Shown here one piece after another: positions 19,735-37,506 of a stretch of 64,000 bases of DNA (position 1 is the stretch's first letter; the number at the start of each line of letters is the position of its first letter). A model generated the notes under the pieces. That model saw only the letters and a program-made list of their open reading frames with translations. It was not told the DNA's origin and searched no databases. The position numbers and the translations under genes were made by a program. Location of the stretch: assembly GCF_041915215.1 (NCBI RefSeq), contig NZ_JAYSBV010000012.1; one strand, given 5' to 3'. The DNA comes from Zoogloea sp. (GTDB taxonomy: Bacteria; Pseudomonadota; Gammaproteobacteria; Burkholderiales; Rhodocyclaceae).

Positions 19735-20122
19735 CTTAGCAATTCCCCTTCTTGGCCTGACCCGGCGGGCAAAAATCCCCACCACCACGATGGCCCCCGC
19801 TGCCACCTCGGTTCGGGTCCACAATCACGGCGCCACCCGGGGTGTATACCGCGCAGCCCCCCAACAGATTCAAAAAACTCGCCACAGCAGCCAGCATCAG
19901 CACTTTTTTCATTATTTATCCCTCATCGCATTGATTGTGTGGAATGGATCAGACAGCACCCATCCTGCCACGAGTCATTAAAAAGCACATCTCCAAACAC
20001 CGCCATCCAGGGCCAGAGGCAGCGGTCTCCCCACCAAAATACCCCCCTTTCCTCCCCCTGTTCTCCCCTAAGCCCAAGGGCGCCGATATCTAAGATTGCT
20101 GCAACCCTTCCAAGGAGCAGCA

Positions 20123-20893
20123 ATGAAGGCCGTGATCCTCGCGGGTGGCCTGGGCACCCGTCTTAGCGAAGAAACCGTCTCCCGCCCCAAGCCCATGGTG
20201 AACATCGGGGGGCGTCCCATCCTGTGGCACATCATGAAGATCTACTCCAGTCATGGCATCCATGACTTCGTGATCTGCTGCGGCTACATGGGCTACGTGA
20301 TCAAAGAGTATTTCGCCAACTACTTCCTGCACATGTCGGACGTCACCTTCGACATGAGCAACAACCAGATGGAAATCCACGAGCACCACGCCGAGCCGTG
20401 GCGCATCACCCTCGTGGATACCGGCGACCAGACCCAGACCGGCGGCCGCCTGGCCCGGGTGAAGCAGTACGTGAAGAACGAAGAGATGTTCTGCTTCACC
20501 TACGGCGACGGGCTGGCCGACATCGATGTGCGGGCCGAAATCGACTTCCACCGACGCCACGGCAAGCCCGCCACGGTGGCCGCCGTCCAACCCCCGGGGC
20601 GCTTCGGCTCGCTCCAGCTGGACGGGCCCGATGTGAGCGCGTTTGTCGAAAAGCCCCTGGGCGACGGCGGCTTCATCAACGGCGGCTTTTTCGTGCTCAA
20701 CCCCGGAGTGCTGGATCTGATCGACGGCGATCACAGCGTCTGGGAAGGCGACGTGCTCGCCCGCCTGATCGAACGCCACGAGCTGGCCGCCTTCCAGCAC
20801 AACGGCTTCTGGCGCCCCATGGACACCCTGCGGGACAAGTCCTACCTCGAAGAACTCTGGAACACCGGGAGCGCCCCATGGAAAACCTGGTGA
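20123..20893 (+). CDS. rfbF: glucose-1-phosphate cytidylyltransferase
   Basis: MKAVILAGGLGTRLSEET nucleotidyltransferase motif. About 256 aa. RBS AAGGAG. Confidence 0.9.
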   Translation: MKAVILAGGLGTRLSEETVSRPKPMVNIGGRPILWHIMKIYSSHGIHDFVICCGYMGYVIKEYFANYFLHMSDVTFDMSNNQMEIHEHHAEPWRITLVDTGDQTQTGGRLARVKQYVKNEEMFCFTYGDGLADIDVRAEIDFHRRHGKPATVAAVQPPGRFGSLQLDGPDVSAFVEKPLGDGGFINGGFFVLNPGVLDLIDGDHSVWEGDVLARLIERHELAAFQHNGFWRPMDTLRDKSYLEELWNTGSAPWKTW

Positions 20894-22014
20894 CGCCTCT
20901 TGTAGATCCGGGCTTCTGGGCCGGGCGGCGGGTATTTCTCACCGGCCACACCGGCTTCAAGGGCAGCTGGCTCGCCCTGTGGCTGCACCAGATGGGCGCA
21001 GAGGTGCAGGGCTATGCCCTCGCCCCGCCCAACAGCCCCAATCTGTTTGCCCTGGCGGGCATCAGCGAGCTGCTCCACAACCGGATCGGCGATCTGCGCG
21101 ACGGTGCTCACCTGCGGGCCTGCCTCACCAGCTTCGCCCCGGAAGTGGTGCTCCACCTGGGTGCCCAGGCGCTGGTGTCGGAAGGCTATGCCGACCCGGT
21201 GGGCACCTTCGCCACCAATGTCCAGGGCACCGTGAACCTGCTCGAAGCCGTGCGCTACTGCCCCAGCGTGGGTGCCGTGGTGGTGGTGAGCAGCGACAAG
21301 TGCTACGAAAACCGCGAATACACCGCCACCGACCGGGGCTATCACGAAGATGACCCCATGGGCGGCTACGACCCCTATTCGGCCAGCAAGGGCTGCACCG
21401 AACTGGTCGCCTCTGCCTACCGGCGCTCGTTTCTGCTGCAACGGGGCGTGCCCCTGGCCAGCGCCCGGGCCGGCAACGTGATCGGTGGCGGCGACTGGAG
21501 CCCTGCCCGGCTGGTGCCGGACGTGCTCGCTGCCTTCAGCGCCGGCCGCCCGGTGCTGCTGCGCAACCCGGACGGCGTGCGCCCCTGGCAGCACGTGCTC
21601 GAACCCCTGGCCGGCTACCTGGCCCTGGCCCAGCGCCTGCACCAGGAAGGCGCCCCCTGGGCCGAAGGCTGGAACTTTGGCCCCGACCCGGCGGATGCCC
21701 GGAGCGTGGGCTGGGTGGTGGAACACCTGGCCCGGGCCTGGGGCCCGGATGCCTGCTGGGACAAGGGCGATGCCCCCATCCATGAAGCTGGCACCCTGCG
21801 CCTGGATTGCCACAAGGCCCACACCCGCCTGGGCTGGCAGCCCCGCTGGGACACCGCCACCGCCCTCGACCGCAGCCTGGCCTGGTTCCGGGCCTGGCAA
21901 CAGGGCGCCGACATGCGCCAGTACAGCCGCGCCGAGATCGACGCCTACTGCGACGCTCCCGGCCTGGCCCCCACCGCCCCCACCCTCCACGGAGACACAT
22001 CATGCCCGGTCTGA
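20878..22014 (+). CDS. rfbG: CDP-glucose 4,6-dehydratase
   Basis: SDR extended family with [14 protein letters not shown] Rossmann motif. About 378 aa. Overlaps rfbF by 16 nt. Confidence 0.85.
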
Positions 22015-23369
22015 TCCGCTACGCCCTGCGCCCCGACGCGTCTGGCCAATGCCAACTGAACCTGCCCGAACTGGCCGGCCAGGATGTGGAAATCCTGGTG
22101 CGCCCGCGCCAGCCCGACAGCAGCGACACCCCCTGGCGCGCCGGGCGGGACAGCGTGCAGCCCTCGGGCAAGGTAATCGGCGAACCCGAAAAGAACGCCA
22201 TGATCGAAGCCGCCCTGGATGGCTGGCTCACCACCGGGCGCTTCAACGATGCGTTTGAGGAGCGCCTCGCCCGCTTTGTCGGGGTGCCCTACGCCCTCAC
22301 CGTGAATTCCGGCTCCTCGGCCAATCTGGTGGCCTTCACCACCCTGACCTCGCCCCAGCTGGGCGAACGGGCGATCCGCCCGGGGGATGAAGTCATCACC
22401 GTGGCCGCCGGCTTCCCGACCACCGTGTATCCCATCATCCAGAACGGGGCGATCCCGGTGTTCGTGGATGCCCGGCTGCCCGACTACAACATCGACGTGG
22501 CCATGCTGGAAGCGGCCCTCAGCCCCCGCACCAAGGCCATCATGGTGGCCCACACCCTGGGCAACCCCATTGATCTGGACACGATTTGCGCCTTTGCCCA
22601 GGCCCACAAGCTGTGGCTGATCGAAGACTGCTGCGATGCCCTCGGCTCCCGCTGGAAAGGCCGCCGGGTGGGGAGCTTCGGGGATCTGGCCACCCTGTCC
22701 TTCTACCCCGCCCACCACATCACCATGGGCGAAGGGGGCGCGGTGCTGACCGCCAACCCGGAGCTCAAGCGGATTGCCGAATCCTTCCGCGACTGGGGGC
22801 GGGACTGCTGGTGCAAGACCGGCTGCGACAACACCTGCGGCAAGCGCTTTGGCTGGCAGCAGGGCCGCCTGCCCGCCGGCTACGACCACAAATACACCTA
22901 CAGCCATGTGGGCTACAACCTCAAGATCACCGACATGCAGGCCGCCTGCGGGCTGGCCCAGCTGGATCGGCTGGAAGACTTCATCGCCGCCCGCAAGCGC
23001 AACTTCAACCACCTGAAGGCGGCCCTGGCCGATTGCACCGACTTTTTGATCCTGCCCGAAGCCACCCCGGGCAGCGATCCGGCGTGGTTCGGCTTCCCCA
23101 TCACCCTCAAGCCTGAAGCCGGGGTGAACCGGGTGGATCTGGTCCAGTACCTGGATCAGCACAAAATCGGCACCCGGCTGCTGTTTGCCGGCAACCTGAT
23201 CCGCCAGCCGGCCATGGCCGGGCGGGATTACCGGGTGATCGGCACCCTGCCGGTGGCCGACCAGATCATGCGCGACACCTTCTGGATCGGCGTGTGGCCC
23301 GGCCTCAGCCGGGAGCAGCTGGACTATGCCGTGCATCACATCAAGACCTTCCTGGGAGTCGAATTATGA
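22002..23369 (+). CDS. rfbH: CDP-6-deoxy-D-xylo-4-hexulose 3-dehydrase (E1, PMP-dependent, DegT/AHBA family)
   Basis: [10 protein letters not shown]...[12 protein letters not shown]-terminal signature of RfbH/DdhC. Start codon uncertain; the ATG at 22002 gives 455 aa and overlaps rfbG by 13 nt. Confidence 0.8.
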
Positions 23370-24862
23370 GCACCAAGCCCCTCATGGTGTTTGAAATGGC
23401 CAACAACCACATGGGCGACCTGGGCCACGGCCTGGCCACCATCCGCGCCCTGCGCGAGGCCTGCACCGGCTTCGAGGCCGATTTCGACTTCGCCTTCAAG
23501 CTCCAGTACCGGGATCTGGACACCTTCATCCACGCCTCGGTGCGCGGGCGCGAAGACGTGAAGTACGTGAAGCGCTTTGAAGAAACCCGGCTGAGCGACG
23601 CTTCCTTTCAGGAACTGGTGCGGGAAATGCGCGACAACGGCTTTCAAACCGTATGCACACCCTTCGACGAGCCCTCGGTGGACAAGATCGAAGCCCACGC
23701 CATCGAGAGCATCAAGGTCGCCAGCTGCTCCTTCACCGATTGGCCCCTGCTGGAGCGCATCGCCCAGAGCAACAAGCCGGTGATCGCCTCCACCGCCGGC
23801 GCGACGCTGGAAGAGATCGACAACGTGGTGAGCTTCTTCCTGCACCGCCACAAGCAGCTCACCCTGATGCACTGCGTGGCCGAATACCCGACCCCGGACG
23901 CCAGCCTGCAGGTGAATCAGATCGCCCTGCTCCAGGCCCGCTACCCGGACTGCCGGATCGGCTACTCCACCCACGAATCCCCCGACAACACCCTGGCGGT
24001 GGCCCTGGCCGTGGCCAAGGGCGCCCGGGTGTTCGAGAAGCATGTGGTGCTGCCCACCGCCCGCTACCCGGCCAATGCCTACTCGGCCAACCCGGCCCAG
24101 ATCCGGGCCTGGCTGGAAAGTGCGCGCCGGGCCCTGGCCATCTGCGGCAGCGCCGACCGCTACCAGCCCTCCCGCGCCGAAGAAGCCAGCCTGCACAGCC
24201 TGCGCCGGGGGGTGTTTGCCACCCGCCCCATTCCTGCCGGCACCCAGCTGACCCGGGACATGATCGAGTTTGCCTTCCCGCCGGTGGAAGGCCAGCTCAC
24301 CGCCAACGCGTGGTCCAAGTACAGCCAGTTCCGCGCCACCCAGGACATTCCTGCCGGCACCCCGGTGCTGCACATGGATCTGGCCGAAAGCCACCTGCGC
24401 AGCCAGGTGATGGGCATCGTTCAAGACGTGAAGAAGCTGCTCAAGGCCGCCCATGTGGTGATTCCGGGCAAGTCGGAACTGGAGATTTCCCACCACTTCG
24501 GGCTGGAGCGCTTTGACGACTTCGGGCTCACCATGCTCACCGTGGTGAACCGGGAATACTGCAAGAAGCTGCTGGTGCTGCTGCCGGGCCAGACCCACCC
24601 CGAGCAATACCACCTCAAGAAGGAAGAAACCTTTGTGGTGGTGCACGGCGAACTCACCCTGTGGCTCGATGGCGAAGAACGCCTGGCCCACGCCGGCGAC
24701 GTGATCACCGTGAACCGGGGCGTGCGCCACCGCTTTTACACCCGCGTGGGCGCGGTGTTCGAGGAGATTTCCTCCACCCACGAGCCCAACGACTCCTACT
24801 ACACCGACCCGGCCATTGCGCGGAACACCCAGCGCAAGACCTGGCTCACCTACTGGATGTAA
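23366..24862 (+). CDS. NeuB-family (sialic-acid-synthase-like) PEP-condensing enzyme with SAF domain, fused to a C-terminal cupin
   Basis: NeuB signatures [44 protein letters not shown] domain [17 protein letters not shown]. An extra roughly 140-aa cupin ([23 protein letters not shown]). ATGA overlap with rfbH. Confidence 0.65.
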
Positions 24863-24880
24863 GCCCGGAGACTGCCCACC

Positions 24881-26704
24881 ATGCGCCTTGCCGACTGGAT
24901 CATGCAGCGCCTCGCCGCCGAAGGGGTGCGCCACGTTTTCACCCTGCCCGGGGGCGGTGCCATGCATCTGAACGATGCCTTGGCCTGCGAAACCCAGCTT
25001 ACCCCAGTGCCCGGCCACCACGAACAGGCCTGCGCCATTGCTGCCGAGGCCTGCGGGCGCAGCGGCCCCCCGGGCTTTGGCGTGGTGCTGGTGACCACCG
25101 GGCCGGGGGCCACCAATGTGGTGACGCCCGTGGCCGGGGCGTGGATAGACTCGGTGCCCCTGCTGGTGATTTCTGGCCAGGTGAAGCGGGCCGATCTGCT
25201 CAATGGCCGTCCCCTGCGCCAGACCGGCGTGCAGGAGGTGGACATCATCAGCATGGTGCGCGGCATCACCAAATACGCGGTCACCGTCACCGACCCCCTC
25301 ACCATCCGCCAGCACCTGGAACAGGCCCTGTACCGGATGCGCCATGGCCGGCCCGGCCCGGTCTGGCTGGATATTCCGTTGGACGTGCAGGCTGCCCCCA
25401 TCGAACCCGAACAGCTCCCCGGCTGGAGCGCCCCCGAGCTGGACAGCCCCCTGCCCGGTCACACCCTGAGCGCCATTGCCGGGCTGCTCCAGAAATCCCG
25501 CCGCCCGCTGATTCTGGCGGGCCACGGGGTGCGTCTGGCCGGCGCGGCCAAGGACTTCCGGCAACTGGTGGACGCCCTCGGGATTCCCGCCGTCACCACC
25601 TGGAACGCCCTGGACCTGCTCCCCTGGGAACACCCCCTCAACCTGGGCCGCCCCGGCGTGGTGGCCGCCCGGGCCGCCAATTTTGCGGTGCAGAACTGCG
25701 ACCTGCTGATCGCCATTGGCAGCCGGCTGGACCCCATCATCACCGCCTACAACCCCAAGGGCTTTGCCCGGGAGGCACGCAAGGTGGTGGTGGATGTGGA
25801 CCCCCACGAACTGGCCCGCCTCGCCCAGCAAGACATGCCCATCGACCACGCCCTGGCCCTGGATGCGGGCGACTTCATCCGGGGGCTGGAAGTGGCCACT
25901 CGCAGCCTGAACCTGGATCAGCACGAAGCCTGGCGGGTGCGCTGCCGGGGCTGGAAGACCCGCTATCCGCTCAACGAAACCCCGCGCTTCCCCAGCGAAG
26001 GCCCCATCGGCCACGCCCATTTTGTGGCGGCCCTCTCGGAGGCGGCCCCGCCGGATACCCTCATCAGCACCGGCAGTTCGGGGCTGGCGGTGGAGTTTTT
26101 CTATGCGGGCTTCAAGAACAAGGAAGGGCAGCGCTGCTTCCTCACTTCCGGGCTCGGGGCCATGGGCTACGGCCTGCCCGCAGCGATTGGCGCCAGCCTG
26201 GGCCAGGACAAGCAAGCCTCCCTGGCGGTGGAGTCCGATGGGAGCCTGCAGCTCAACCTGCAGGAACTCGCCACCCTGGTGGCCCAACGCCTGCCGGTGT
26301 GCCTGTTCATCATGAACAACGGGGGCTATGCATCGATCCGCAACACCCAGCGCAACTACTTTGCCGGGCGCTATCTGGCGAGCGGCCCCCAATCCGGCCT
26401 GCACATGCCCGAACTGGGCCCCCTCGCCACCGCCTACGGGCTGCCCTACATGCAGATCAGCAACTGCCGAAATCTGGCCCAGCAACTGCGCGAAGCGCAA
26501 AACCTGCCCCGCCCCTGCCTGATCGACGTGCGCCTGATTCCCGATGAAACCCTCGCCCCCAAGTGCGCCGCGATTCCCCGGCCCGACGGTTCGATTGTTT
26601 CCATGCCGCTCGAAGACATGAGCCCCCTGCTGCCCCTGGAAACCCTCCAGCGGGAAATGCTGGTGCCGCTCCTGCCCGCATCGCTGGAAGCCCCCCGTTC
26701 CTGA
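24881..26704 (+). CDS. thiamine-diphosphate-dependent acetolactate-synthase-like enzyme (YerE-type sugar two-carbon branching enzyme candidate)
   Basis: ALS/TPP family architecture, 607 aa, with a GDG-like TPP region. Embedded in the CDP-sugar operon, as yerE is in the yersiniose cluster. Confidence 0.7.
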   Translation: MRLADWIMQRLAAEGVRHVFTLPGGGAMHLNDALACETQLTPVPGHHEQACAIAAEACGRSGPPGFGVVLVTTGPGATNVVTPVAGAWIDSVPLLVISGQVKRADLLNGRPLRQTGVQEVDIISMVRGITKYAVTVTDPLTIRQHLEQALYRMRHGRPGPVWLDIPLDVQAAPIEPEQLPGWSAPELDSPLPGHTLSAIAGLLQKSRRPLILAGHGVRLAGAAKDFRQLVDALGIPAVTTWNALDLLPWEHPLNLGRPGVVAARAANFAVQNCDLLIAIGSRLDPIITAYNPKGFAREARKVVVDVDPHELARLAQQDMPIDHALALDAGDFIRGLEVATRSLNLDQHEAWRVRCRGWKTRYPLNETPRFPSEGPIGHAHFVAALSEAAPPDTLISTGSSGLAVEFFYAGFKNKEGQRCFLTSGLGAMGYGLPAAIGASLGQDKQASLAVESDGSLQLNLQELATLVAQRLPVCLFIMNNGGYASIRNTQRNYFAGRYLASGPQSGLHMPELGPLATAYGLPYMQISNCRNLAQQLREAQNLPRPCLIDVRLIPDETLAPKCAAIPRPDGSIVSMPLEDMSPLLPLETLQREMLVPLLPASLEAPRS

Positions 26705-26727
26705 CTCCGACTGACTGAGGTCTGCCC

Positions 26728-27888
26728 ATGAGCCTCGCCTGCCGGCTGTGTGACCAGCCCCTGTTCCCCGACCCGCTGCTGTGCCAGCACCACATGCCCG
26801 CCGCCGCCCAGGAGCTGCCCACCGCCGCCACCCTGAGCGCCGATGGGGGGGTGAGTCTGGCCCTGCACCAGTGCAGCGCCTGCGGCGTGGTCCAGCTCAC
26901 CAACCCACCGGTGCCCTATTACCGGGACGTGATCCGCGCTGCCGGGCTCTCGGCGGAGATGCGCGCCTTCCGCCTCCAGCAGTTTGGCGCCTGGGTGGCC
27001 GGGCACGACCTCGCCGGCAAGCCGGTGCTGGAAGTGGGCTGCGGCCAGGGGGAATACCTGGCCCTGCTGCGCGAGGCCGGCGTGGATGCGTGGGGCCTGG
27101 AGCACCGGGCCGCCTCGGTGGCCCACTGCCAGACCCAGGGCCTGCAGGTCTTGCAGGGCTTCATGGAAGGCCCTGAAACCCGCTTCGCCGGGCCGGGCAT
27201 CCCGGGCCACTTCGACGGCTTTGCGATTCTCAATTTTCTGGAACACATCCCCGCCGCGCACCGAACCCTGGCCGGCATCGCCGCCCACCTGAGCCCGGGG
27301 GCCAGCGGGCTGGTGGAAGTGCCCAATTTCGACATGATCCTGAAGGCCGGGCTGTTTGCCGAGTTCATCCCGGATCATCTGCACTACTTCACCCAGGCCA
27401 CCCTCACCGGCCTGCTGGAGCGCAGCGGTTTCGAGGTGCTGGAGTGCCGGCCCGAATGGCACGATTACGTGCTCTCGGCCACGGTGCGCAAGCGCCAGCC
27501 CCTGGATCTGTCCAGCCTCAACCAGCGCCAGCACGCCCTGGCCGACGAATTCCGCCGCTTTCTGGCCGGCTTTGCGCCGGGCCGGGTGGCGATCTGGGGC
27601 GCTGGCCACCAGGCCCTGGCCCTCATCAGCCTGATGGACATCGCCCCCCACATCCGCTACGTGCTGGATTCGGCCCCCTTCAAGCAGGGGCGTTACACCC
27701 CGGCCACCCACCTGCCCATCGTGCCCCCCGAGCGGCTGGCCGAGGGCGAGGTGGATGCGGTCATCGTGCTCGCCGCCAGCTATTCGGACGAAGTGTTGCG
27801 CACCCTGCGGGCGCGCCACGGCAGCCGCTTTCGCACCGCTGCCCTGCGTGGCGAGCACCTGGTCTGCGATCCGGAGCCCCAGCCATGA
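26728..27888 (+). CDS. sugar C-methyltransferase (TylC3-like; Zn-ribbon + class I SAM MTase + C-methyltransferase C-terminal domain)
   Basis: N-terminal Cys-rich CRLCDQP...CQHH...CSACG. SAM motif VLEVGCGQGEY. C-terminal Rossmann-like VAIWGAGHQALALISL domain. Confidence 0.7.
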   Translation: MSLACRLCDQPLFPDPLLCQHHMPAAAQELPTAATLSADGGVSLALHQCSACGVVQLTNPPVPYYRDVIRAAGLSAEMRAFRLQQFGAWVAGHDLAGKPVLEVGCGQGEYLALLREAGVDAWGLEHRAASVAHCQTQGLQVLQGFMEGPETRFAGPGIPGHFDGFAILNFLEHIPAAHRTLAGIAAHLSPGASGLVEVPNFDMILKAGLFAEFIPDHLHYFTQATLTGLLERSGFEVLECRPEWHDYVLSATVRKRQPLDLSSLNQRQHALADEFRRFLAGFAPGRVAIWGAGHQALALISLMDIAPHIRYVLDSAPFKQGRYTPATHLPIVPPERLAEGEVDAVIVLAASYSDEVLRTLRARHGSRFRTAALRGEHLVCDPEPQP

Positions 27889-28442
27889 ATGCGCCACCTT
27901 CAAGCCCCGTCACCCCGGACGCCCTGGAGGCCGCCATTGCCACCCTGCAGGCCGCCGTGGGCTCGGCCCAGGCGGGGCTGCCCGAGCCGGTGTTCCAGCT
28001 GGTCAGCAGCCTGACCCCGCTCATCAATGTGGATCTGCTGATCCACGACGAACACGGTCGCTGCCTGCTCACCTGGCGCCACGATGCCTTCTACGGGCCA
28101 GGCTGGCACATTCCGGGGGGCATCATCCGCTTCAAGGAAGCCGCCGCCCAGCGCATTGCCGCCGTGGCCGACCTGGAGCTGGGCTGCTGCGTCACGTTCG
28201 CACCCCTGCCCATCGCCCTGCACGAAATCACCAACCCGAACCGGGACGTGCGCGGCCATTTCATCTCGCTGCTGTACTCCTGCCGCCTGGCCAGCCCCCC
28301 CGACCCGGGCCGGGCCTTTGATCCGGCCAGCCCCCGGGCAGGGGACTGGGCCTGGCACACGGGCAGCCCGGACAACCTGATCCACCAGCAGCACATCTAC
28401 CGCCCCTACATCGACAACCCCCTTGCCGGAGTCTGGTCATGA
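27885..28442 (+). CDS. NUDIX hydrolase, GDP-mannose mannosyl hydrolase (Gmm/NudD)-like NDP-sugar hydrolase
   Basis: Modified Nudix box GGIIRFKEAAAQRIAAVADLELG, alignable to Gmm GGRVQKDETLEAAFERLTMAELG. ATGA overlap with the methyltransferase. Confidence 0.55.
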   Translation: MNAPPSSPVTPDALEAAIATLQAAVGSAQAGLPEPVFQLVSSLTPLINVDLLIHDEHGRCLLTWRHDAFYGPGWHIPGGIIRFKEAAAQRIAAVADLELGCCVTFAPLPIALHEITNPNRDVRGHFISLLYSCRLASPPDPGRAFDPASPRAGDWAWHTGSPDNLIHQQHIYRPYIDNPLAGVWS

Positions 28443-29512
28443 GCGCGCTCGATATTCTGGTCACCACCTACAACGGCGTCGCCCACCTGGGTGACTGCCT
28501 GCAATCCCTCGTCCGGCAACGCTTCACCGACTTTCGGGTGCTGGTGATCGACAACGCCTCCAGCGACGCCACCCCCGCGCTGGTGGAAGAATGGATGGCC
28601 CGGGATGCCCGCATCCACTACCACCGCAACCCCCAGAACATCGGCCACATGCTGTCCGCCGACACGGCCTACCGGATGACCGGGGCCGAATACGTGCTCC
28701 AGATCCACGACGACGACATGCTGCACCCGGACTTCCTCAGCCAGGTGCTGGAACAGGGTCTAATGCAGCATCCGGACTGCCCCTTCGCCTACAGCCTGTT
28801 TTACCGGCTGGTGGACGGTGTCACCCTACCCGGCATCCACCAGTACCGGCCCGAGCTGCCCACCGGCGTGCATGACGTGCTGCCCGCCCTGTGCTTCACC
28901 AACTGGATCCTCCAGTCCTTCACCGTGTTCCGGCGGGCATGGTTTGATGCGGTAGGCGGCTTCCAGCGCCACATCGCCCGGCTCCACCCGGAAGACGCGG
29001 TCAAGCTGCGGGGCGGGTTTGTGGATCACTACATGTGGGCCCGGCTCGCCACCCTGGGGCCCGCCTATGTGGTGGATGAGCCCCTGGGCTATTACCGCAT
29101 CCACGCCAGCAGCCAGTTCAACCAGTCCAGCGGCAGCCGGCGCCTGATCCAGGAAGCGATCCGCACCTACGACTACATCTACGACGATCACGACCTGTTC
29201 GACGACGTGACCCGCTACCTGGTCAAGCTCAACCAGGCGGGCCGGCTGCTGACCCAGTGCGGGCTGATCAAAACCGCCGTCGACATGCTCCAGAGCCCCG
29301 ACACGGGCCCCGAACTGGCGCCCATCCGGCGTGCCTTCCTGCAGGGTCTGCACACCGGGCTGGAGCACATGGTGTTCGATTCCCCCAAGTTTCGGGAGCA
29401 CTTCCGGCTGGAAACGCCGGAAACCCTGGGCATGCTGGCCCAGATCATCCGCGACCTGCCCCCCGACACCACCCTGCGGCCCCGCAACACCCTGCGCGCC
29501 CGCATGTCCTGA
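28439..29512 (+). CDS. glycosyltransferase family 2
   Basis: ILVTTYNG...LVIDNASSD GT2 Rossmann start and a DDD motif. 4-nt overlap with the NUDIX gene. Confidence 0.75.
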   Translation: MSALDILVTTYNGVAHLGDCLQSLVRQRFTDFRVLVIDNASSDATPALVEEWMARDARIHYHRNPQNIGHMLSADTAYRMTGAEYVLQIHDDDMLHPDFLSQVLEQGLMQHPDCPFAYSLFYRLVDGVTLPGIHQYRPELPTGVHDVLPALCFTNWILQSFTVFRRAWFDAVGGFQRHIARLHPEDAVKLRGGFVDHYMWARLATLGPAYVVDEPLGYYRIHASSQFNQSSGSRRLIQEAIRTYDYIYDDHDLFDDVTRYLVKLNQAGRLLTQCGLIKTAVDMLQSPDTGPELAPIRRAFLQGLHTGLEHMVFDSPKFREHFRLETPETLGMLAQIIRDLPPDTTLRPRNTLRARMS

Positions 29513-29527
29513 GCCGCCCCCCGCGCC

Positions 29528-30568
29528 ATGTCCCCCGCCCTGCTTGCCGCCCCACTAAACCCGTTTGCCGACTGGGCCGCCCTGCGTGGCGCCCGGATCT
29601 TCATCACCGGCGGCACCGGCCTGTTCGGCCACTGGCTGCAGCCCCTGCTCTGCCGGGCCAACCAAACCCACGGACTGGGGCTGCAGCTCACGGTACTGAG
29701 CCGCGACCCGGCGCGCTTTCTGGCCGCCCATCCGGAACTGGCCGATGATACGGCGCTCAGCTTCATCGCCGGGGATGTGCGCGACTTTGCCTTCCCGGCA
29801 GGGGAATTCAGCCATGTGATCCACGGGGCGGCCACCGCCGCTGCCGCCACCTTCCACCGCCAGGAAGACGCCCTCACCAAGTTCGACACCACCTATGCCG
29901 GTACCCGCCGGGTGCTGGATTTCGTGGCCGAACGGGGTATCCCGCGCCTGCTGGTGCTGGGCTCGGGCGCTTACTACGGCCCCCTCCAGGCGGGCCACAC
30001 GGCCTACCCGGAGGACTACCCGGTCGCCCCCGAGCCCGGCAATCTGGACGTGGCCATTGGCCATGCCAAGCGGGCGGCGGAGTTCCTGTGCGCGGCCTAC
30101 GCGGCCCGCCACGGGTTTTCGTATTCGGTGGCGCGCTGCTTTTCCTTTGTCGGCCCCCATCTGCCCCTGGATCTGCACTACGCCATCGGCAACTTCATTC
30201 GCGATGCGCTGACGGCGCCCGCCATCATCGTGGGGGGCGACGGCAGCCCGATCCGCTCCTATCTGTATCTGGGCGACCTGATGGTCTGGCTGCTGACCGT
30301 GCTCACCCGGGGCGCCCCGGGGCAGGCCTACAACGTGGGCTCGGATGAAGCGATCAGCATCGGCGAACTGGCCCGGCGGGTGGGCGCGCTGTTGGCGCCC
30401 GGCAAGCCGGTACACATCCTGGGCCAGCCGAACGGGCTGCCTACCCGCAACATCTACGTGCCGGACATCCGCCGCGCCCGGGCGGAACTGGGGCTGGACG
30501 TACTCACCCCGCTGGATGATGCGATCCGCATCACCGCCCGCCATGCCGCGCCCCAAAGGCCGAATTAG
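29528..30568 (+). CDS. NAD-dependent epimerase/dehydratase (SDR) family protein, candidate NDP-4-keto-sugar reductase/epimerase
   Basis: ITGGTGLFGHWL glycine-rich NAD-binding motif. About 346 aa. Confidence 0.7.
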   Translation: MSPALLAAPLNPFADWAALRGARIFITGGTGLFGHWLQPLLCRANQTHGLGLQLTVLSRDPARFLAAHPELADDTALSFIAGDVRDFAFPAGEFSHVIHGAATAAAATFHRQEDALTKFDTTYAGTRRVLDFVAERGIPRLLVLGSGAYYGPLQAGHTAYPEDYPVAPEPGNLDVAIGHAKRAAEFLCAAYAARHGFSYSVARCFSFVGPHLPLDLHYAIGNFIRDALTAPAIIVGGDGSPIRSYLYLGDLMVWLLTVLTRGAPGQAYNVGSDEAISIGELARRVGALLAPGKPVHILGQPNGLPTRNIYVPDIRRARAELGLDVLTPLDDAIRITARHAAPQRPN

Positions 30569-30694
30569 CCCCGGCTGACCGGTCTTTTCCGGCCATGGCC
30601 CGCCCGGGCCTGGTTTCACAATGTGCTCAAAGCCGGATAAGCCAATTACCCGGCTGGCTGCTGTCATTCCCCGACAACCCAGCGAGAGCACACC

Positions 30695-31807
30695 ATGAGC
30701 ATTGCCCTAACCCCTGACGCCGGCCTCAACCCCGGCGAAGCCGCGAAACGCAACGACCTGGCGCAACGCAAGCCCTACATCGCCGCCAAGCTGGCGCGCA
30801 TCACCGAGATGGAGGAACGCGGCGAGATCAGCCCCATCATCCGGCTGGAAAAGAGCTATCTGTGCAACTTCACTTGCACCCATTGCTCTGCCGAGTACTA
30901 CATGGACCGGCACCTTAAAAAGGTTTTCCAGATCGTGGATGAGCGCCGCAAGATTGATCTGGACGACATTCGCCGGATCTCCCGCGAAGCCGACGAACTG
31001 GGCCTTGCCCGCTTCGTGATTACCGGGGGCGAGCCCCTGGTGATGAAGGACTTCGATGAGGTGGTGGCCGCCATCGACCCGGATCGCCATTACGTGATCA
31101 CCGACACCAATGGCTGGTTCCTGGATCTGGCCAAGGCCAAGCACCTGAAATCCATCGGCGTTGAAAAAGTCCAGCTCTCGCTGGACAGCATGGTGGAAGC
31201 CGATCACGACGCCTTCCGCAACAAGCCCGGCTCCTACAAGCGGGTGATGCGCGCCATCGACGCGGCCCGGGAGGCCGGCCTCAACCTGATTCTCTCCACC
31301 GTGCTGGTCAAGGGCCGGGCCAAAACCGACGAGTTCCGCCAGATGTGCGAATTCGCCAAGGCCAAGGGCATCGGGCTGTATGTGTCTTACGCCAAGCCCA
31401 CCGGCTCGTGCACCGAACACCCGGAGTTCGTGATCGAGAAGGAAGACGCCGACATCGTGCGGGAGCTGGAAAAGGAATATCCGGTATTCACCCACATGAC
31501 CCCTTCCTACGGCTCCTTCAAGGGCTGCATCACGGTGAAGGGCATCATCACCATCACCTCCACCGCCGAGGTGACGCCCTGCCCCTACATTGATTTTTCG
31601 CTCGGCAACCTGCGCGAGACGCCCCTCAAGGAAATTCTCGCCCGGGGCATGCGCAATCCCTGGCTCGGCCCCCACCGGCCCGACTGCCTGATCGGCGAAG
31701 ACCCCCAGTTCATCAAGATCCACACCGAACGCACCCAGGGCCGCACCCATCTGCCGGTGCCCTGGGGCCAGGGTTTTTCGGATCACGACAGCCTCCAGGA
31801 CGAGTGA
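30695..31807 (+). CDS. radical SAM enzyme (CX3CX2C; C-terminal Cys-containing auxiliary region)
   Basis: CNFTCTHC cluster motif. GGEPLV SAM-binding motif. C-terminal CPYID...C residues. Confidence 0.75.
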   Translation: MSIALTPDAGLNPGEAAKRNDLAQRKPYIAAKLARITEMEERGEISPIIRLEKSYLCNFTCTHCSAEYYMDRHLKKVFQIVDERRKIDLDDIRRISREADELGLARFVITGGEPLVMKDFDEVVAAIDPDRHYVITDTNGWFLDLAKAKHLKSIGVEKVQLSLDSMVEADHDAFRNKPGSYKRVMRAIDAAREAGLNLILSTVLVKGRAKTDEFRQMCEFAKAKGIGLYVSYAKPTGSCTEHPEFVIEKEDADIVRELEKEYPVFTHMTPSYGSFKGCITVKGIITITSTAEVTPCPYIDFSLGNLRETPLKEILARGMRNPWLGPHRPDCLIGEDPQFIKIHTERTQGRTHLPVPWGQGFSDHDSLQDE

Positions 31808-31876
31808 ACGCACGAGCACGCACGCTCACGCAGCCCCCCACATACACCCCACCTTCCGACCCGGGAGCCAGAGACC

Positions 31877-32683
31877 ATGTTTGCCACCGCCGACACCCTG
31901 CCCGACCTGTCCCTGTTTGATGAAAGTGGCCGCTGCCTGCCCAAGGGCCTGAACGCCCCGGCCCACGCCCGCAGCCGTCGCTACTTCCGCCTCCAGCCGC
32001 CGCGTCTGGACATGCCCAATCTGCACGCCCGGCTGCGCCAGCACCTGGGCGCCGGCCAAGGCATCAGCACCCAGGATTTCTGCACCCGGGTGGACGCCCT
32101 GCGCGCCAACCTGCAGGCAGACCCCCACCTGGCCGCCATTACCCGGGGCATCGGGATTCCCTTCATCCTGCCCCGGCTGGAGCACCCTGATGTGGGTACC
32201 GTACTGGACAAGCGCTACCTGCCGGCCATTGCCAGCGCCTTTGGCCAGCGCTTCCCGGATTACCGCTTCACCAGCCACCACACCCGCCCCCTGGCCGGGC
32301 TGTTGGGGGTACTGGAAGGCAGTCGCCACGAACGCCTGATCGAAGCCAGCCGGGAACGGGAGGTGGTGGGCCTGTACTTCCCTTGCCTCTCGGAATACTC
32401 GGTGCCCGCCGCCCTCGAACAGGTGGCCCGGCTGCCCGACAACTTTGTGCTGGCCGGCGGCTATGACACCAGTGCCGCCCTGGTGGCCTGCCCCGAGCTG
32501 CTGCTGCGCACCGACGGTTACCCGCCCCTGCTGTGGCTTTCGGCCCTGGCCGAAAACGGCAAACCCGGCATTGGCTACCACTACGAAGCCTACGGCTACA
32601 ACCTGACCTTCAACCGGCGCCCCCACCTGGGCATGGCCGCCGAGTACTGGAGCCACGGCCTGAGCGTGCTGGAAACCGTCTGA
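31877..32683 (+). CDS. hypothetical protein
   Basis: Co-directional ORF inside the island with no recognisable motif. Start uncertain. Confidence 0.35.
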   Translation: MFATADTLPDLSLFDESGRCLPKGLNAPAHARSRRYFRLQPPRLDMPNLHARLRQHLGAGQGISTQDFCTRVDALRANLQADPHLAAITRGIGIPFILPRLEHPDVGTVLDKRYLPAIASAFGQRFPDYRFTSHHTRPLAGLLGVLEGSRHERLIEASREREVVGLYFPCLSEYSVPAALEQVARLPDNFVLAGGYDTSAALVACPELLLRTDGYPPLLWLSALAENGKPGIGYHYEAYGYNLTFNRRPHLGMAAEYWSHGLSVLETV

Positions 32684-32725
32684 CCCCCTCTTCTGCACAA
32701 GACTGCAAGACCAAGGAAGGCCCCC

Positions 32726-35700
32726 ATGTCCAGCACGCTCCTGCGTCAGCTCTACGGCGCCCGCCGCCATCCCTATTACGTGATGGCCCCGGACTACCGG
32801 CGCACCTCCGCCGGCATCCGGGTCATGCACCAGCTCTGCCATGCCCTGCGCCTGAGCGGGGAGGAGGCCTGGATCGTGACCCAGCAGACCCACCCGGGCC
32901 TGGACACGCCCCTCCTGACCGATGAAATCCGCGCCGCCCACCAGAAAGCCGGCCTGGTGCCCATCGCCATTTACCCGGAAGTGGTGGGCCGCAACCCGCT
33001 CAACGGACGCGTGGTGGTGCGCTACCTGCTCAACCGCCCGGGCATGCTGGGCGAAACCCCGGCCTACGGCGCCGATGATCTGATTTACGTATACGAACCC
33101 GAGCTGGCCACCCACAGCGAGCGGGTGGATGGGGTGCTGCACATGCCCTCCATCGACACCCGGCTGTTCCATAACCGGGACAACCCGGACGAGGGCCGAC
33201 GCTCGGGATGCTGCATCTACTTTGGGCGCTACACCGGCGGCCCCCAGGAATACGCCGAACTGGCCGCCCGCTGCACCACGATCACCAGCGACTTTCCGGC
33301 CAGCCGGGAAGCACTGGCCGCCCTGCTGCGCCGCTCCGAATGGCTCTACTGCTTCGAAAACACCGCCCTGTCGATGGAAGCCCGCCTGTGCGGCTGCCCG
33401 GTGGTGATCCTGCCCGGCCCCATGTTCCGGGCCGAGAGCTTCTTTGGCCGGGAGCAGGGCTTTGAGCAAGGGGTGGCCTTCTCCGAAGAGCCCGCCGCCC
33501 TCGCCCAGGCCCGGGCCAGCGTGGGGCGCATCCCCGCCCTCTACGCCCGGCTGGAAGAAAAGTTCTGGAGCGGGCTGGACAGCCTGATCGAACAGACCCA
33601 GACCCGGGCCCAGGAAGAAGCCGCCCGCATCGGCGAAGAAGACCCGGCCCACCCCCGGAGCAGCAGCCAGGACCCGGAATACGCCACCTGGCGCGCCCGC
33701 CAGAGCCTGCAGGAAGTGGATGCCGAGGTGCTGGCCGAACGCATGGTGCAGCGCTGGACCCACCGCCCGGGCATCCACCTGATCCTCGAACTGCGCGCCG
33801 GCCAGGAGCCCCTGCTGGCCGACACCCTGGACAGCCTGGCCGCCCAGCTCTACCCCGAGTGGCTGCTGACCGTGGTGACGGTGCTGGACAAGCCCCCGGT
33901 GGCCGATGAGATTCCGAATCTCCAGTGGCTGAGCCTGCGCGACATCACCCACACCGATTACGTCATCGACGAAATGGCCAAGGCCTCCCCGGGCCAGTGG
34001 GTCGCCCGCATCGTGCCCGGCCTGACCCTGGAACCCCAGGCCCTGCAGGTGGCAGCGGATTACATCAATGCCCGCCCGGCCTGGCGCCTGATCTACACCG
34101 ACGAAGACACCCTGGAAGCAGACGGCAGCTACAGCCAACCCCTGTTCAAGCCCGATTTCAACCTGGACCTGCTGCGCGCCCAGGCCTATTTCGGCAGCCT
34201 GGTGCTGGTGGAAAAGCAGGCCCTGGTGGCCGCCGGCAGCTATGGCCCGGGCCAATACCCCTGGGCCGAAAACTATGACCTGAGCCTGCGGGTGCTGGAA
34301 CAGCAGGGCGAGGCGAGCATCGGCCACATCGACCAGATGCTCGTGCACCTGCATCGTCACAGCCCCCTCAGCCTCAACCCGGCCAGCGAAAAGGCCGCCC
34401 TGGAAGCCCATCTGGCCCGTTGCGGGCTGGAAGTGCGGGTACACGACAGCCCCCTGGCCGGCACCCGCCGGCTGGAACACCTGTGGCCCACCACGCCCCT
34501 GGTCAGCCTCATCATCCAGACCCGGGACCGGGAGGAATACCTGCGCCCCCTGCTGGACAGCCTGCGCGAACGCACCCGCTACCCGGCCTGGGAAGTGGTG
34601 CTGGTGGATAACGACAGCAGCGAGCACGACAGCCTCGCCTACCTGGCCGAGCTGCAGGCCGACCCGTTCTGGAGTGCCCGGCTGCGCGTCGTCCCCTGCC
34701 CGGGTGAGTTCAGCTACGCCCGGGGCGCCAACACCGGCGCCCGCCAGGCCCGGGGCGCCTATCTGATGTTCCTGGACAACGACATGCACATCGTTCAGGA
34801 CGAATGGCTGGACCGGCTGATGAGCCACGCCCAGCGCCCCGAGGTACTGATCGTGGGCCCGCGCCTGAGCTACCCGGAAACTGGCAAGGTACAGCAGACC
34901 GGCTGGGTGCTGGGCCTGCGGGGCAGTGCCGGCAGCCCCTGGGACAATGATCTCGAACTGGCCGCCCCCGGCTACATGGGGCGCGGGCTGTGCGATCAGA
35001 ACGTGGGCGCCATTGGCGGCTCGGCCCTGCTGATCCGCCAGACCGAATTTGCCCGGGTGGGCGGGATGGACGAGGTGAATTTCCCCCTCGCCCAAAGCGC
35101 GCTGGATCTGTGCCTGCGCGTTACCGGCGAAGGGGCCCCGGCGGGTGCCAAGATCGTCTGGACCCCCCACGCGATGCTGGTCCATTACGGCAGCGTTTCC
35201 CTCAAGGCCCGCCAGCGCAAGACCGAGGTGGCCCTGGCCGACCTGCTTGAAGCCCAGCGCGCCCACGATCAGGTGGTGGAGCGCTGGCTCCCCCGGCTGG
35301 CCCGGGACCCGGCCTATAACCGCCATCTGAGCTTGGTCAGCCCCTTCAAGCCCGAACATGTGATCCCCATGGACTGGGATCCGAACTTCCACGACCGGCC
35401 CCGCATTCTGGGCGTTCCGCTCACCGGCGGCGCTGGGGAATACCGGCTGCGCGCCCCCCTGCGCGCCCTGGCCCAACGGGGCCTGGCCCAGACCACCATC
35501 TGCGATCCACCCCGGGCCTTTACGGTGCGCATCCTGTCGCCAGTGGAAGTGGCCCGGGCCGCGCCGGACAGCCTGGTGCTGCACCAGCCCCTGGATGATG
35601 CCCAGAGCGACGCCCTCGCGGCCTACGCCCGCTTCGTCCCTGAGGTGAAGCGCATCGTGACCATGGATGACCTGATCACCGCCCTGCCCAAGAAGAACTG

Positions 35701-36394
35701 CTTTTATAAAAGCGGCTTCAAGGACGCCCGGGCCCGGCTGCGCCGCAACCTGGGCCTGGCAGACCGGCTGGTGGTGAGCACCCAGCCCCTGGCCGAGCTG
35801 TGCGCCGGGATGATCGACGATATCCGGGTGATGCCCAACGGGCTGGAAAGCGCACTCTGGCTCCCGGTTCAGCCGCCCCGCAAAGCCCGCCGCAAGCCCC
35901 GGGTGGGCTGGGCCGGCGCCCAACAGCACCAGGGCGACCTGGAACTGATTTACCCGGTGGTGGAAGCCCTGGCCGATGAGGTGGACTGGATTTTCATGGG
36001 CATGTGCCCGGACCCGCTCAAACCCTTCGTACGGGAAGCCCACGGCTTCGAGCTGAATTTCCGGGCCTATCCGGCAGCCCTCGCCCGGCTGGATCTGGAT
36101 CTGGCCATCGCGCCCCTGGAAATCCACGCCTTCAACGAAGCCAAGAGCAACCTGCGCCTGCTGGAATACGGGGCCATGGGCTGGCCCGTGGTGTGCACCG
36201 ACATCTACCCTTACCAGGACGCACCGGTGACCCGACTCCCCAACGATCCACAACGCTGGATCACCACCCTGCGCGAAATGCTGGCCGAACCCGAGGCCCT
36301 GGCCGCTGCGGGTCAGCAGCTACGCCAATGGGTTCTGGATCGTTACCTACTTGAAAACCTGCTGCCAGACTGGCTCTCCGCCTACGGCCCCTGA
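32726..36394 (+). CDS. large multidomain glycosyltransferase (unknown N-terminal region + two GT2 domains + C-terminal GT1/GT4-like domain)
   Basis: LVSLIIQTRD...VVLVDNDSS...FLDNDM (GT2 with DxD). An earlier GT2-like segment (LILELRAG...YTDEDT). C-terminal RVGWAGAQQHQGD...GWPVVCTDIYPY GT1-like segment. Ends 290 nt before fliC. Confidence 0.75.
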   Translation: MSSTLLRQLYGARRHPYYVMAPDYRRTSAGIRVMHQLCHALRLSGEEAWIVTQQTHPGLDTPLLTDEIRAAHQKAGLVPIAIYPEVVGRNPLNGRVVVRYLLNRPGMLGETPAYGADDLIYVYEPELATHSERVDGVLHMPSIDTRLFHNRDNPDEGRRSGCCIYFGRYTGGPQEYAELAARCTTITSDFPASREALAALLRRSEWLYCFENTALSMEARLCGCPVVILPGPMFRAESFFGREQGFEQGVAFSEEPAALAQARASVGRIPALYARLEEKFWSGLDSLIEQTQTRAQEEAARIGEEDPAHPRSSSQDPEYATWRARQSLQEVDAEVLAERMVQRWTHRPGIHLILELRAGQEPLLADTLDSLAAQLYPEWLLTVVTVLDKPPVADEIPNLQWLSLRDITHTDYVIDEMAKASPGQWVARIVPGLTLEPQALQVAADYINARPAWRLIYTDEDTLEADGSYSQPLFKPDFNLDLLRAQAYFGSLVLVEKQALVAAGSYGPGQYPWAENYDLSLRVLEQQGEASIGHIDQMLVHLHRHSPLSLNPASEKAALEAHLARCGLEVRVHDSPLAGTRRLEHLWPTTPLVSLIIQTRDREEYLRPLLDSLRERTRYPAWEVVLVDNDSSEHDSLAYLAELQADPFWSARLRVVPCPGEFSYARGANTGARQARGAYLMFLDNDMHIVQDEWLDRLMSHAQRPEVLIVGPRLSYPETGKVQQTGWVLGLRGSAGSPWDNDLELAAPGYMGRGLCDQNVGAIGGSALLIRQTEFARVGGMDEVNFPLAQSALDLCLRVTGEGAPAGAKIVWTPHAMLVHYGSVSLKARQRKTEVALADLLEAQRAHDQVVERWLPRLARDPAYNRHLSLVSPFKPEHVIPMDWDPNFHDRPRILGVPLTGGAGEYRLRAPLRALAQRGLAQTTICDPPRAFTVRILSPVEVARAAPDSLVLHQPLDDAQSDALAAYARFVPEVKRIVTMDDLITALPKKNCFYKSGFKDARARLRRNLGLADRLVVSTQPLAELCAGMIDDIRVMPNGLESALWLPVQPPRKARRKPRVGWAGAQQHQGDLELIYPVVEALADEVDWIFMGMCPDPLKPFVREAHGFELNFRAYPAALARLDLDLAIAPLEIHAFNEAKSNLRLLEYGAMGWPVVCTDIYPYQDAPVTRLPNDPQRWITTLREMLAEPEALAAAGQQLRQWVLDRYLLENLLPDWLSAYGP

Positions 36395-36417: not shown

Positions 36418-36446
36418 AAAACCCGGCCTGTTGCGCCGGGTTTTTG
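36418..36446 (+). terminator. Rho-independent terminator (CCCGGC-loop-GCCGGG + TTTTT)
   Basis: Readable hairpin and T-run immediately after the large GT gene. Confidence 0.6.
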
Positions 36447-36565
36447 TGCTTTGCACCCTAAAGACTCGGCCCTCCCAGGCCGCTACCACTGGCAAGCCGG
36501 TAATCCGTCCAGAACTCCAACAAAACACAAAAACAAAAAAGTCAAGAGATTTATAGGGCGTTTTC

Positions 36566-36681: not shown

Positions 36682-37506
36682 ATGGCTGCCACGATCAACA
36701 CCAATTCCATGTCGCTCAACGCACAGCGGAATCTGTCTTCCTCGGCCGGTATCATGGCCAAGTCGGTCCAACGCCTGTCTTCGGGCCTGCGGATCAACGG
36801 CGCATCCGATGATGCAGCCGGCCTGGCGATTGCCGACAAGATGAACTCCCAGGCCAAGGGTTTTGACGTGGCCATCCGCAATGCCAACGACGGCATCTCC
36901 ATGGCCCAGACCGCAGAAAGCGCGATGCAGGCCGTGACCGACAACCTCCAGCGGATGCGCGAACTGGCGGTCCAGTCGGCCAACGGTACCTACACCAGCG
37001 GTGACCAGGCCAACATGGATACGGAATTCCAGCAGCTGCAATCGGAAATCCAGCGGGTTGTGGGGGGCACCACCTTCAACGGTCAGAACGTGCTGAACCT
37101 CAGCTCCAACGTGAATTTCCAGGTGGGTGCCGGTACTGCCACCACGGACACCATCACGGTGCAAAGCAGCGCAGTGACCCTGTCCGGGGTGTCCGCCGCC
37201 GTGACCGGCAGCATCAGCGCCGCCTCGGCTGCCACCGCCGCGATTGCCAACATCGACACCCAGATCAACAACCTGAACACTGCCCGCGCCACGTGGGGCG
37301 CCGTGCAGAACCGGTTCTCCTCGGTGGTCCAGACCCTGCAGGTGGCTTCGGAAAACGCCAAGTCCTCCCGTGGCCGGATCATGGATGCAGACTTCGCCCA
37401 GGAAACCTCCAACATGACCCGCGGCCAGATCCTGCAACAGGCCGGTACCGCGATGGTGGCCCAGGCCAACAGCGCCCCCAACAACGTGCTGTCCCTGCTC
37501 CGCTAA
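36682..37506 (+). CDS. fliC: flagellin (short, 274 aa)
   Basis: Conserved flagellin N-terminus ([16 protein letters not shown]...[20 protein letters not shown]) and C-terminus ([26 protein letters not shown]). RBS AAGGAG. Confidence 0.9.

Follow-up and report, generated by a model that had tools for sequence, protein, structure and literature searches.

What is the function of the 1222-amino-acid (aa) protein encoded between a run of sugar-biosynthesis genes and the flagellin gene fliC in Zoogloea sp.? We analysed this gene (positions 32726-36394, plus strand) within a 64,000-nt stretch of contig NZ_JAYSBV010000012.1, hereafter the window. A preliminary description of the locus had named the product a candidate flagellin glycosyltransferase (GT), and our comparisons supported this in silico through homology to the Pseudomonas enzymes Fgt1 and FgtA and through a conserved position 5' of fliC. 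Because this homology to genetically validated enzymes coincides with synteny, with a sugar island and with a Ser/Thr-rich centre in FliC, we conclude that the gene, the last of a sugar operon, very probably encodes a soluble cytoplasmic flagellin O-glycosyltransferase of the Fgt1/FgtA family. Structure and profile comparisons resolved four modules in the protein, here called N, M, G and C in order from the amino terminus. The earlier picture of a three-module glycosyltransferase, with a domain of unknown function, two GT2 modules and a GT1/GT4-like module, was therefore right in substance but needed correction to four modules, the first GT2-like one being degenerate.

The homology was examined by BLASTP, with Fgt1, the flagellin rhamnosyltransferase of P. 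syringae / P. amygdali pv. tabaci 6605, represented by its ortholog from P. asturiensis, a member of the P. syringae group (L047 9113-12694). Residues 300-1222 aligned with this ortholog at 37% identity over 929 aa (E 2e-138), and residues 368-1222 aligned with FgtA (PA1091) of PAO1 at 36.8% identity over 873 aa (E 3e-100), the FgtA sequence having been machine-read from the PDF supplement of PMC11833859, so that it may miss residues. Homology to both enzymes, collinear through M, G and C, places the protein among the Fgt1/FgtA-type transferases, and the alignment with the Fgt2 ortholog was limited to M and G (33% identity). Deletion of fgt1 leads to non-glycosylated flagellin and deletion of fgt2 to partial glycosylation (PMC12915359), Fgt1 transfers rhamnose to Ser (PMC3927599), and a pa1091 mutant likewise makes non-glycosylated flagellin (PMC11833859). 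Both alignments thus bore out the earlier remark that large multi-domain glycosyltransferases beside fliC are known from pseudomonad glycosylation islands.

The Zoogloea protein shares with Fgt1 the collinear M-G-C core and a similar size (1222 and 1193 aa), and each gene lies in a flagellar locus 5' of a short flagellin gene (274 aa here, 282 aa there) whose product has a Ser/Thr-rich centre; the P. asturiensis locus reads flgK-flgL-fgt1 (1193 aa)-fgt2 (971 aa)-orf3-fliC (282 aa). The two differ in that the N-terminal ~290 aa of Fgt1 form a further GT2 domain where the Zoogloea protein carries the N module, in that Fgt2 (M-G only) and orf3 stand between fgt1 and fliC in P. syringae whereas a single gene abuts fliC here, and in the donor pathway, which is dTDP-rhamnose plus viosamine in P. 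syringae and a CDP-hexose island here. FgtA, which serves b-type flagellin glycosylation, resembles the Zoogloea protein in its M-G-C core, in the position of its gene immediately 5' of fliC and in being a multi-activity fusion protein. It is longer, however, at ~1,685 aa in the sequence as read; the first ~830 aa include a TagF/CD0244-like phosphotransferase part (PMC10714395, PMC11833859) and are dissimilar to the N module, and its glycan, a deoxyhexose, bears phospho-N,N-dimethylthreonine. From these sequences the members of the family appear to share a constant M-G-C core and to differ in the accessory module at the N terminus, which is a further GT2 in Fgt1, a phosphotransferase region in FgtA and the N module in the Zoogloea protein; additional relatives carry dehydratase, methyltransferase or TPR fusions. 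We rejected the N module as a counterpart of the TagF-like phosphotransferase of FgtA, as residues 1-300 gave no BLASTP match to FgtA (best E 2.8) and no Pfam match to Glyphos_transf.

Other flagellin glycosyltransferases, namely Maf, FlmG (TPR plus GT-B), GmaR (GT2 plus TPR) and CD0240, likewise O-glycosylate the centre of flagellin in the cytoplasm before export and use GT-A or GT-B folds, but their sequence relation to the 1222-aa protein is no closer than a generic GT2 or GT-B fold. GmaR (22ao) gave a weak GT2 match only (E 3.5e-5). Membership in the Maf, FlmG or GmaR groups was rejected, since Pfam scans of the 1222-aa protein and 30 relatives found neither a Maf/DUF115 nor a TPR domain.

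The genomic setting was compared across 79 related loci (L001-L079) returned by a scan of species-representative genomes. A fliC gene lay on the same strand within 600 nt downstream in 26 of them and within 6 kb in 9 more, and 63 of the 79 had a flagellar gene within 10 kb. Loci of Zoogloea, Methylophaga, Sulfuricella, Azonexus, Dechloromonas, Formivibrio, Andreprevotia and many Pseudomonas share the arrangement, and beta- and gammaproteobacteria alike retain the position directly 5' of fliC. In the window, the transferase gene is co-oriented with fliC, which in turn precedes flaG, fliD, fliS and a fliK-like gene. Three Methylophaga loci (L006, L007, L010) carry two tandem flagellin genes 3' of the transferase. 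In Pseudomonas, Pectobacterium and Pantoea islands (L035, L049, L041, L066, L072, L078), two or three family paralogs, of the Fgt1 type (X-M-G-C), the Fgt2 type (M-G) and the N type, stand side by side. In P. brassicacearum (L039 22-4190), a methyltransferase gene and a gene for a 1168-aa N-type transferase lie directly 5' of flgF-G-H-I-J-K-L, a likeness to vioM-vioT of P. syringae in gene order and size.

The flagellin itself offers a plausible acceptor. The central region of FliC (aa ~140-190) is rich in Ser and Thr and, when aligned with FliC of the P. syringae group, corresponds to the stretch that carries six glycosylated serines (PMC12915359). Between the stop codon of the transferase gene and the fliC start are 287 nt, a little short of the 290 nt given in the preliminary description; the terminator and the sigma-28-like motif it placed there were both recovered, but there are two such motifs rather than one. 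The terminator-like hairpin has a 6-bp all-GC stem followed by T5, and its resemblance to an intrinsic terminator suggests that it ends the glycosylation operon. In the sigma-28 scan the fliC-proximal motif was the window's only match, where chance alone would give 0.17. Six Zoogloea-clade loci share both motifs of the tandem without change but differ in the spacers and in the terminator region. Coordinates of these features are collected in Table 1.

Table 1. Features of the transferase locus in window coordinates
Feature	Position	Strand	Basis
Co-oriented sugar-biosynthesis island, probable donor supply	20096..32683	+	Pfam, NCBIfam, short intergenic gaps
Four-module glycosyltransferase gene (N-M-G-C), Fgt1/FgtA-family homolog	32726..36394	+	ORF list, GC3, homologs, BLASTP
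N module (aa 1-300), uncharacterised family	32726..33625	+	Confident model; no database match
M module (aa 345-587), degenerate GT-A (GT2-like)	33758..34486	+	
G module (aa 588-862), canonical GT2 (GT-A)	34487..35311	+	
C module (aa 863-1222), complete GT-B (GT4-like)	35312..36391	+	
Terminator-like hairpin: CCCGGC, 7-nt loop, GCCGGG, TTTTT	36422..36445	+	Sequence, terminator scan
Upstream sigma-28-like motif, TAAAG-N15-GCCGCTAC	36459..36486	+	Both blocks invariant in six aligned Zoogloea-clade intergenic regions
fliC-proximal sigma-28-like motif, TAAAGTCT-N11-TCCGTAAA	36566..36592	+	Scan match and conservation
fliC, 274-aa flagellin, presumed acceptor	36682..37506	+	Pfam Flagellin_N and Flagellin_C

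Upstream, the transferase gene forms the last member of a ~16-kb sugar-nucleotide operon or island. The 12.6 kb that precede it contain rfbF, rfbG and rfbH, a NeuB/SAF/cupin fusion, a YerE/acetolactate-synthase-like thiamine diphosphate (TPP) enzyme and a C-methyltransferase, together with genes for a NUDIX protein, a 357-aa GT2 (28439-29512), an SDR, a radical SAM/SPASM protein and the open reading frame (ORF) orf268. RfbF, RfbG and RfbH scored above the NCBIfam equivalog cutoffs. These three enzymes catalyse the entry steps to CDP-3,6-dideoxyhexoses and are classically found among O-antigen genes. The gene set hints at a CDP-derived dideoxyhexose that is branched or unusual in some other way.

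Such genes raise the question of whether the enzyme might instead build a polysaccharide (O-antigen, exopolysaccharide (EPS) or capsule), with the island serving the cell envelope and fliC a mere neighbour. Several observations weigh against the flagellar assignment, and those that concern genomic context would suit an envelope role. The island carries the classical O-antigen genes rfbF, rfbG and rfbH. In 16 of the 79 family loci there was no flagellar gene nearby, 8 of these 16 being short contigs. Standalone genes for the N domain occur in O-antigen- or EPS-like clusters, in company with ABC transporters or lipid A genes, and none of them had a flagellar context. Source annotations call the relatives only 'glycosyltransferase' or 'O-antigen biosynthesis protein', the latter label having been given to one relative by JGI. 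The FgtA sequence used for comparison was, as noted, read by machine. The role in flagellin modification in this organism is itself deduced from homology and context. However, Pfam scans of the island found no Wzx/Wzy, ABC-transporter, polyprenyl-phosphate initiating transferase or chain-length genes, and the protein has no membrane segment. The position 5' of fliC is moreover kept in many genera, and the nearest characterised homologs act on flagellin. We therefore regard an envelope polysaccharide as a very improbable product of this enzyme.

A different question is whether the enzyme, if it acts on flagellin, attaches the first sugar. It might only elongate or cap the glycan in the manner of VioT, the first sugar being added by another glycosyltransferase such as the separate 357-aa GT2 of the island or a gene outside the window. 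VioT of P. syringae, a 1,173-aa modified-viosamine transferase responsible for the distal sugar, shares 40% identity with OrfN of the PAK a-type island, both being large flagellin-glycan transferases of ~1,170 aa (PMC3927599). N-type proteins of 1163-1176 aa are found in Pseudomonas, some of them encoded directly 5' of fliC (L009, L012), and OrfN is reportedly likewise encoded beside fliC and required for the proximal rhamnose. N-type paralogs accompany Fgt1- and Fgt2-type genes in several of the Pseudomonas, Pantoea and Pectobacterium islands mentioned above, and the P. brassicacearum order of methyltransferase and N-type transferase, like that of vioM and vioT, also fits. The likeness to VioT and OrfN lies in size and gene context, however, and the vioT gene is placed away from the fliC-proximal position whereas the gene studied here adjoins fliC. 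The Zoogloea enzyme is the sole M-G-C protein in the window and has the full core of Fgt1 and FgtA, two enzymes without which no flagellin glycosylation takes place (PMC11833859, PMC12915359). Taken together, a purely elongating function appears unlikely, although clearly less so than an envelope function.

These conclusions presuppose a real gene, and in a window of 68% GC with long ORFs on both strands here, a chance open frame, a pseudogene or a decaying ORF had to be considered. The ORF begins with ATG, spans 1222 codons in the ORF list and its translation, and is preceded by a Shine-Dalgarno-like run, AAGGAAGG, ~7 nt 5' of the start. Its GC content at third codon positions (GC3) is 0.859, in the range of the neighbouring genes (0.84-0.90). 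Over the antisense ORF of 1475 aa (31826..36253), by contrast, GC peaks at the first codon position (GC1 0.858, GC3 0.719) and the translation is 44% Gly+Ala+Val, and for these reasons we discarded it as a shadow frame, in agreement with its earlier description as a GC artefact. A protein homology search found 296 homologs of the 1222-aa product. An identical protein (100%) is on record from a Rhodocyclales metagenome-assembled genome, the Zoogloea relatives are 58-69% identical, and full-length relatives at 34-38% identity occur in Pseudomonas, Chromobacterium, Methylophaga and others. AlphaFold models of the two protein halves were confident (mean pLDDT 90.8 and 93.8) and contained four folded domains, of which G and C keep catalytic motifs. 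Codon-position GC, full-length homologs (34-69% identity) and structure models thus refute an artefact or pseudogene, an explanation of practically no remaining weight, and the gene at 32726-36394 stands as first described. No membrane segment was detected in the protein (maximum Kyte-Doolittle 19-residue mean 1.12) and the modelled domains are all globular, as befits a soluble cytoplasmic enzyme.

Domain dissection by hidden Markov models, which the preliminary description had suggested, placed GT2 above its cutoff, while the C-terminal GT1-type matches remained sub-threshold. The sole significant Pfam domain was GT2 (PF00535, aa 594-719, 72.9 bits against a cutoff of 23.3). It lies in the G module, which has the motifs D628-N-D, D684-N-D and D794 of a GT2 enzyme with a GT-A fold; the clear DND/DxD motifs seen earlier in the second GT2 correspond to residues 628-630 and 684-686. 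The M module has VPG in place of DxD and so lacks the metal/diphosphate-binding motif of GT2 enzymes, although D459 in its YTDED motif is invariant, and it is probably not a conventional transferase. The C module has the two Rossmann domains of a GT-B fold, and its matches to Pfam Glycos_transf_1 and Glyco_trans_1_4 reached 15.5 and 17.0 bits (cutoffs 27 and 25). Among 31 relatives, Glyco_trans_1_4 matched 18 (best E 7e-7) and Glyco_trans_1_2 matched 13 (best E 1e-9). In this module E1147 is invariant and the first Glu of the EX7E motif is variable. Measured over the 31 full-length relatives, positions conserved in at least 90% numbered 18.9 per 100 aa in C, 14.3 in N, 5.5 in G and 4.9 in M, making the GT-B module the most conserved part of the family and the one with the most invariant residues.

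The G module, in contrast, varies at its catalytic centre. Its DxD motif is DND in the Zoogloea proteins and NND in many other members of the survey, and it has been lost altogether in the Fgt1 ortholog (SPH; GT2 at L047 10835-11614) and in fluorescens-group proteins (NPY). In FgtA, as read by machine, both Asp motifs are missing, with GAG in place of DxD and the upstream Asp gone. With GT2 Asp motifs missing from both Fgt1 and FgtA, with C the most invariant module and with Fgt2, which has no C module, dispensable for the first sugar, the GT-B module may be the conserved flagellin-directed transferase. Published work points the other way: there, a structural mapping of FgtA onto CD0240 led to its glycosyltransferase activity being placed in the GT2 part (PMC10714395, PMC11833859).

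The earlier description of the N module as a domain of ~270 aa and unknown function held good: it spans ~270-300 aa and found no match in Pfam or NCBIfam, and neither a 12-sequence nor a 61-sequence profile had a significant match in the PDB. The confident AlphaFold model predicts two beta/alpha/beta halves and a long helix (aa 256-304), and the family has an invariant motif, EAxLCGCPVV (E218, C222, G223, C224). The best PDB lead was the GT4 C-terminal half of WbaZ-1 (E 0.7), over the EAxxxGxPV motif, and hhalign of N against C aligned only this 12-residue motif, without significance. Motif and predicted topology resemble the C-terminal half of a GT-B enzyme in comparisons that stay below significance, and fold searches, being dominated by the GT-A module, assigned no fold class to N, which weighs against the assignment proposed here.

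Beyond this protein, the N module also occurs alone, as a 'hypothetical protein' of 300-450 aa. A search of 1.84 billion representatives found 2,858 clusters at 50% identity with E<=1e-3 and 2,375 with E<=1e-10. Most members are standalone and form the last gene of a sugar cluster, usually directly 3' of an SDR gene (L080, L082, L084, L085, L086). The Sulfuricella locus has a cassette of NUDIX, radical SAM/SPASM and SDR genes, as in the window; Roseomonas and Acidithiobacillus loci have RfbF/G/H-like genes with TPP or DHQS-like enzymes, and a Holophaga locus has rml-like genes. Other fusions join the N module to FkbM methyltransferases or TPR repeats. Within the 79 family loci, homologs of the island SDR were confined to those with an N-bearing transferase (7/16 against 0/63; Fisher p = 4e-6, a value that ignores phylogeny). 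The N module is hence autonomous, widespread and swapped among family members, and our best guess is that it acts as an accessory transferase for a specialised sugar.

Combining both lines, we put forward tentatively, as a possibility we hold with less than even confidence, that across the family it is the GT-B module, not the GT2, that attaches the first sugar to flagellin Ser/Thr, and that N founds a Pfam-less sugar-cluster family (~2,400 clusters), maybe of compact GT-B-like transferases, often found with CDP-hexose RfbF/G/H and fused here to the flagellin enzyme, where it would attach a dideoxy or branched sugar of an unusual kind. If so, the present classification of these enzymes by their GT2 domain misses the initiating module.

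Returning to the flagellin O-glycosyltransferase as a whole, the analysis establishes the gene, the folds of its modules, its homology and its synteny. We infer its acceptor, its donors and the role of each module from homology and context, and they could fit together as follows. Transcription of the sugar operon would end at the terminator, and fliC would be driven by its own sigma-28-type promoter or promoters. The enzyme would act in the cytoplasm on FliC before its export, using sugars made by the island, and would glycosylate Ser/Thr of the short surface-exposed central region. Since one enzyme holds several transferase-like modules, a short oligosaccharide would probably be built. C would be the catalytic or acceptor-directed module conserved throughout the family, and G, with its motifs intact, would add a further sugar; as G looks fully competent here, a single polypeptide could attach two or more sugars. 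M, a degenerate GT-A, may be structural or acceptor-binding, and N, tied to SDR and CDP-hexose genes, could add or handle the specialised sugar.

Should this assignment be correct, flagellin glycosylation of the Fgt1/FgtA type would extend from pseudomonads to Zoogloea/Rhodocyclales, bacteria of the Zoogloea type being wastewater floc-formers whose attachment may be influenced by the surface chemistry of their flagella. The assignment will hardly surprise a specialist, and its modest interest lies in the modular architecture, the question of GT-B versus GT2, the N family and the sugar island. A fixed M-G-C core appears to be paired with a swappable N-terminal module that tracks glycan type, and the island, with its CDP-3,6-dideoxyhexose entry enzymes, YerE-like TPP enzyme, C-methyltransferase and radical SAM/SPASM protein, points to an unusual flagellin sugar. 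Two testable questions follow, namely which module initiates O-glycosylation and what the unannotated N-domain family does.

Some further features of the island were recorded. Its upstream flank holds eutBC and a Gcw_chp gene, where Pseudomonas has flgL instead. Directly 5' of the transferase gene, orf268 (268 aa, 31877-32683, plus strand) had no match in Pfam, NCBIfam or the PDB; its homologs (48-54% identity) adjoin a radical SAM/SPASM homolog in four loci (L010, L043, L064, L069), all with an N-type transferase. Finally, four listed ORFs, rfbG (20398-22014), rfbH (21807-23369), the NeuB-like gene (23294-24862) and the NUDIX gene (27444-28442), overlap their upstream neighbours by hundreds of bases. 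Their family matches begin at residues ~173, ~106, ~29 and ~194, respectively, and the true starts therefore probably lie well downstream of those listed.

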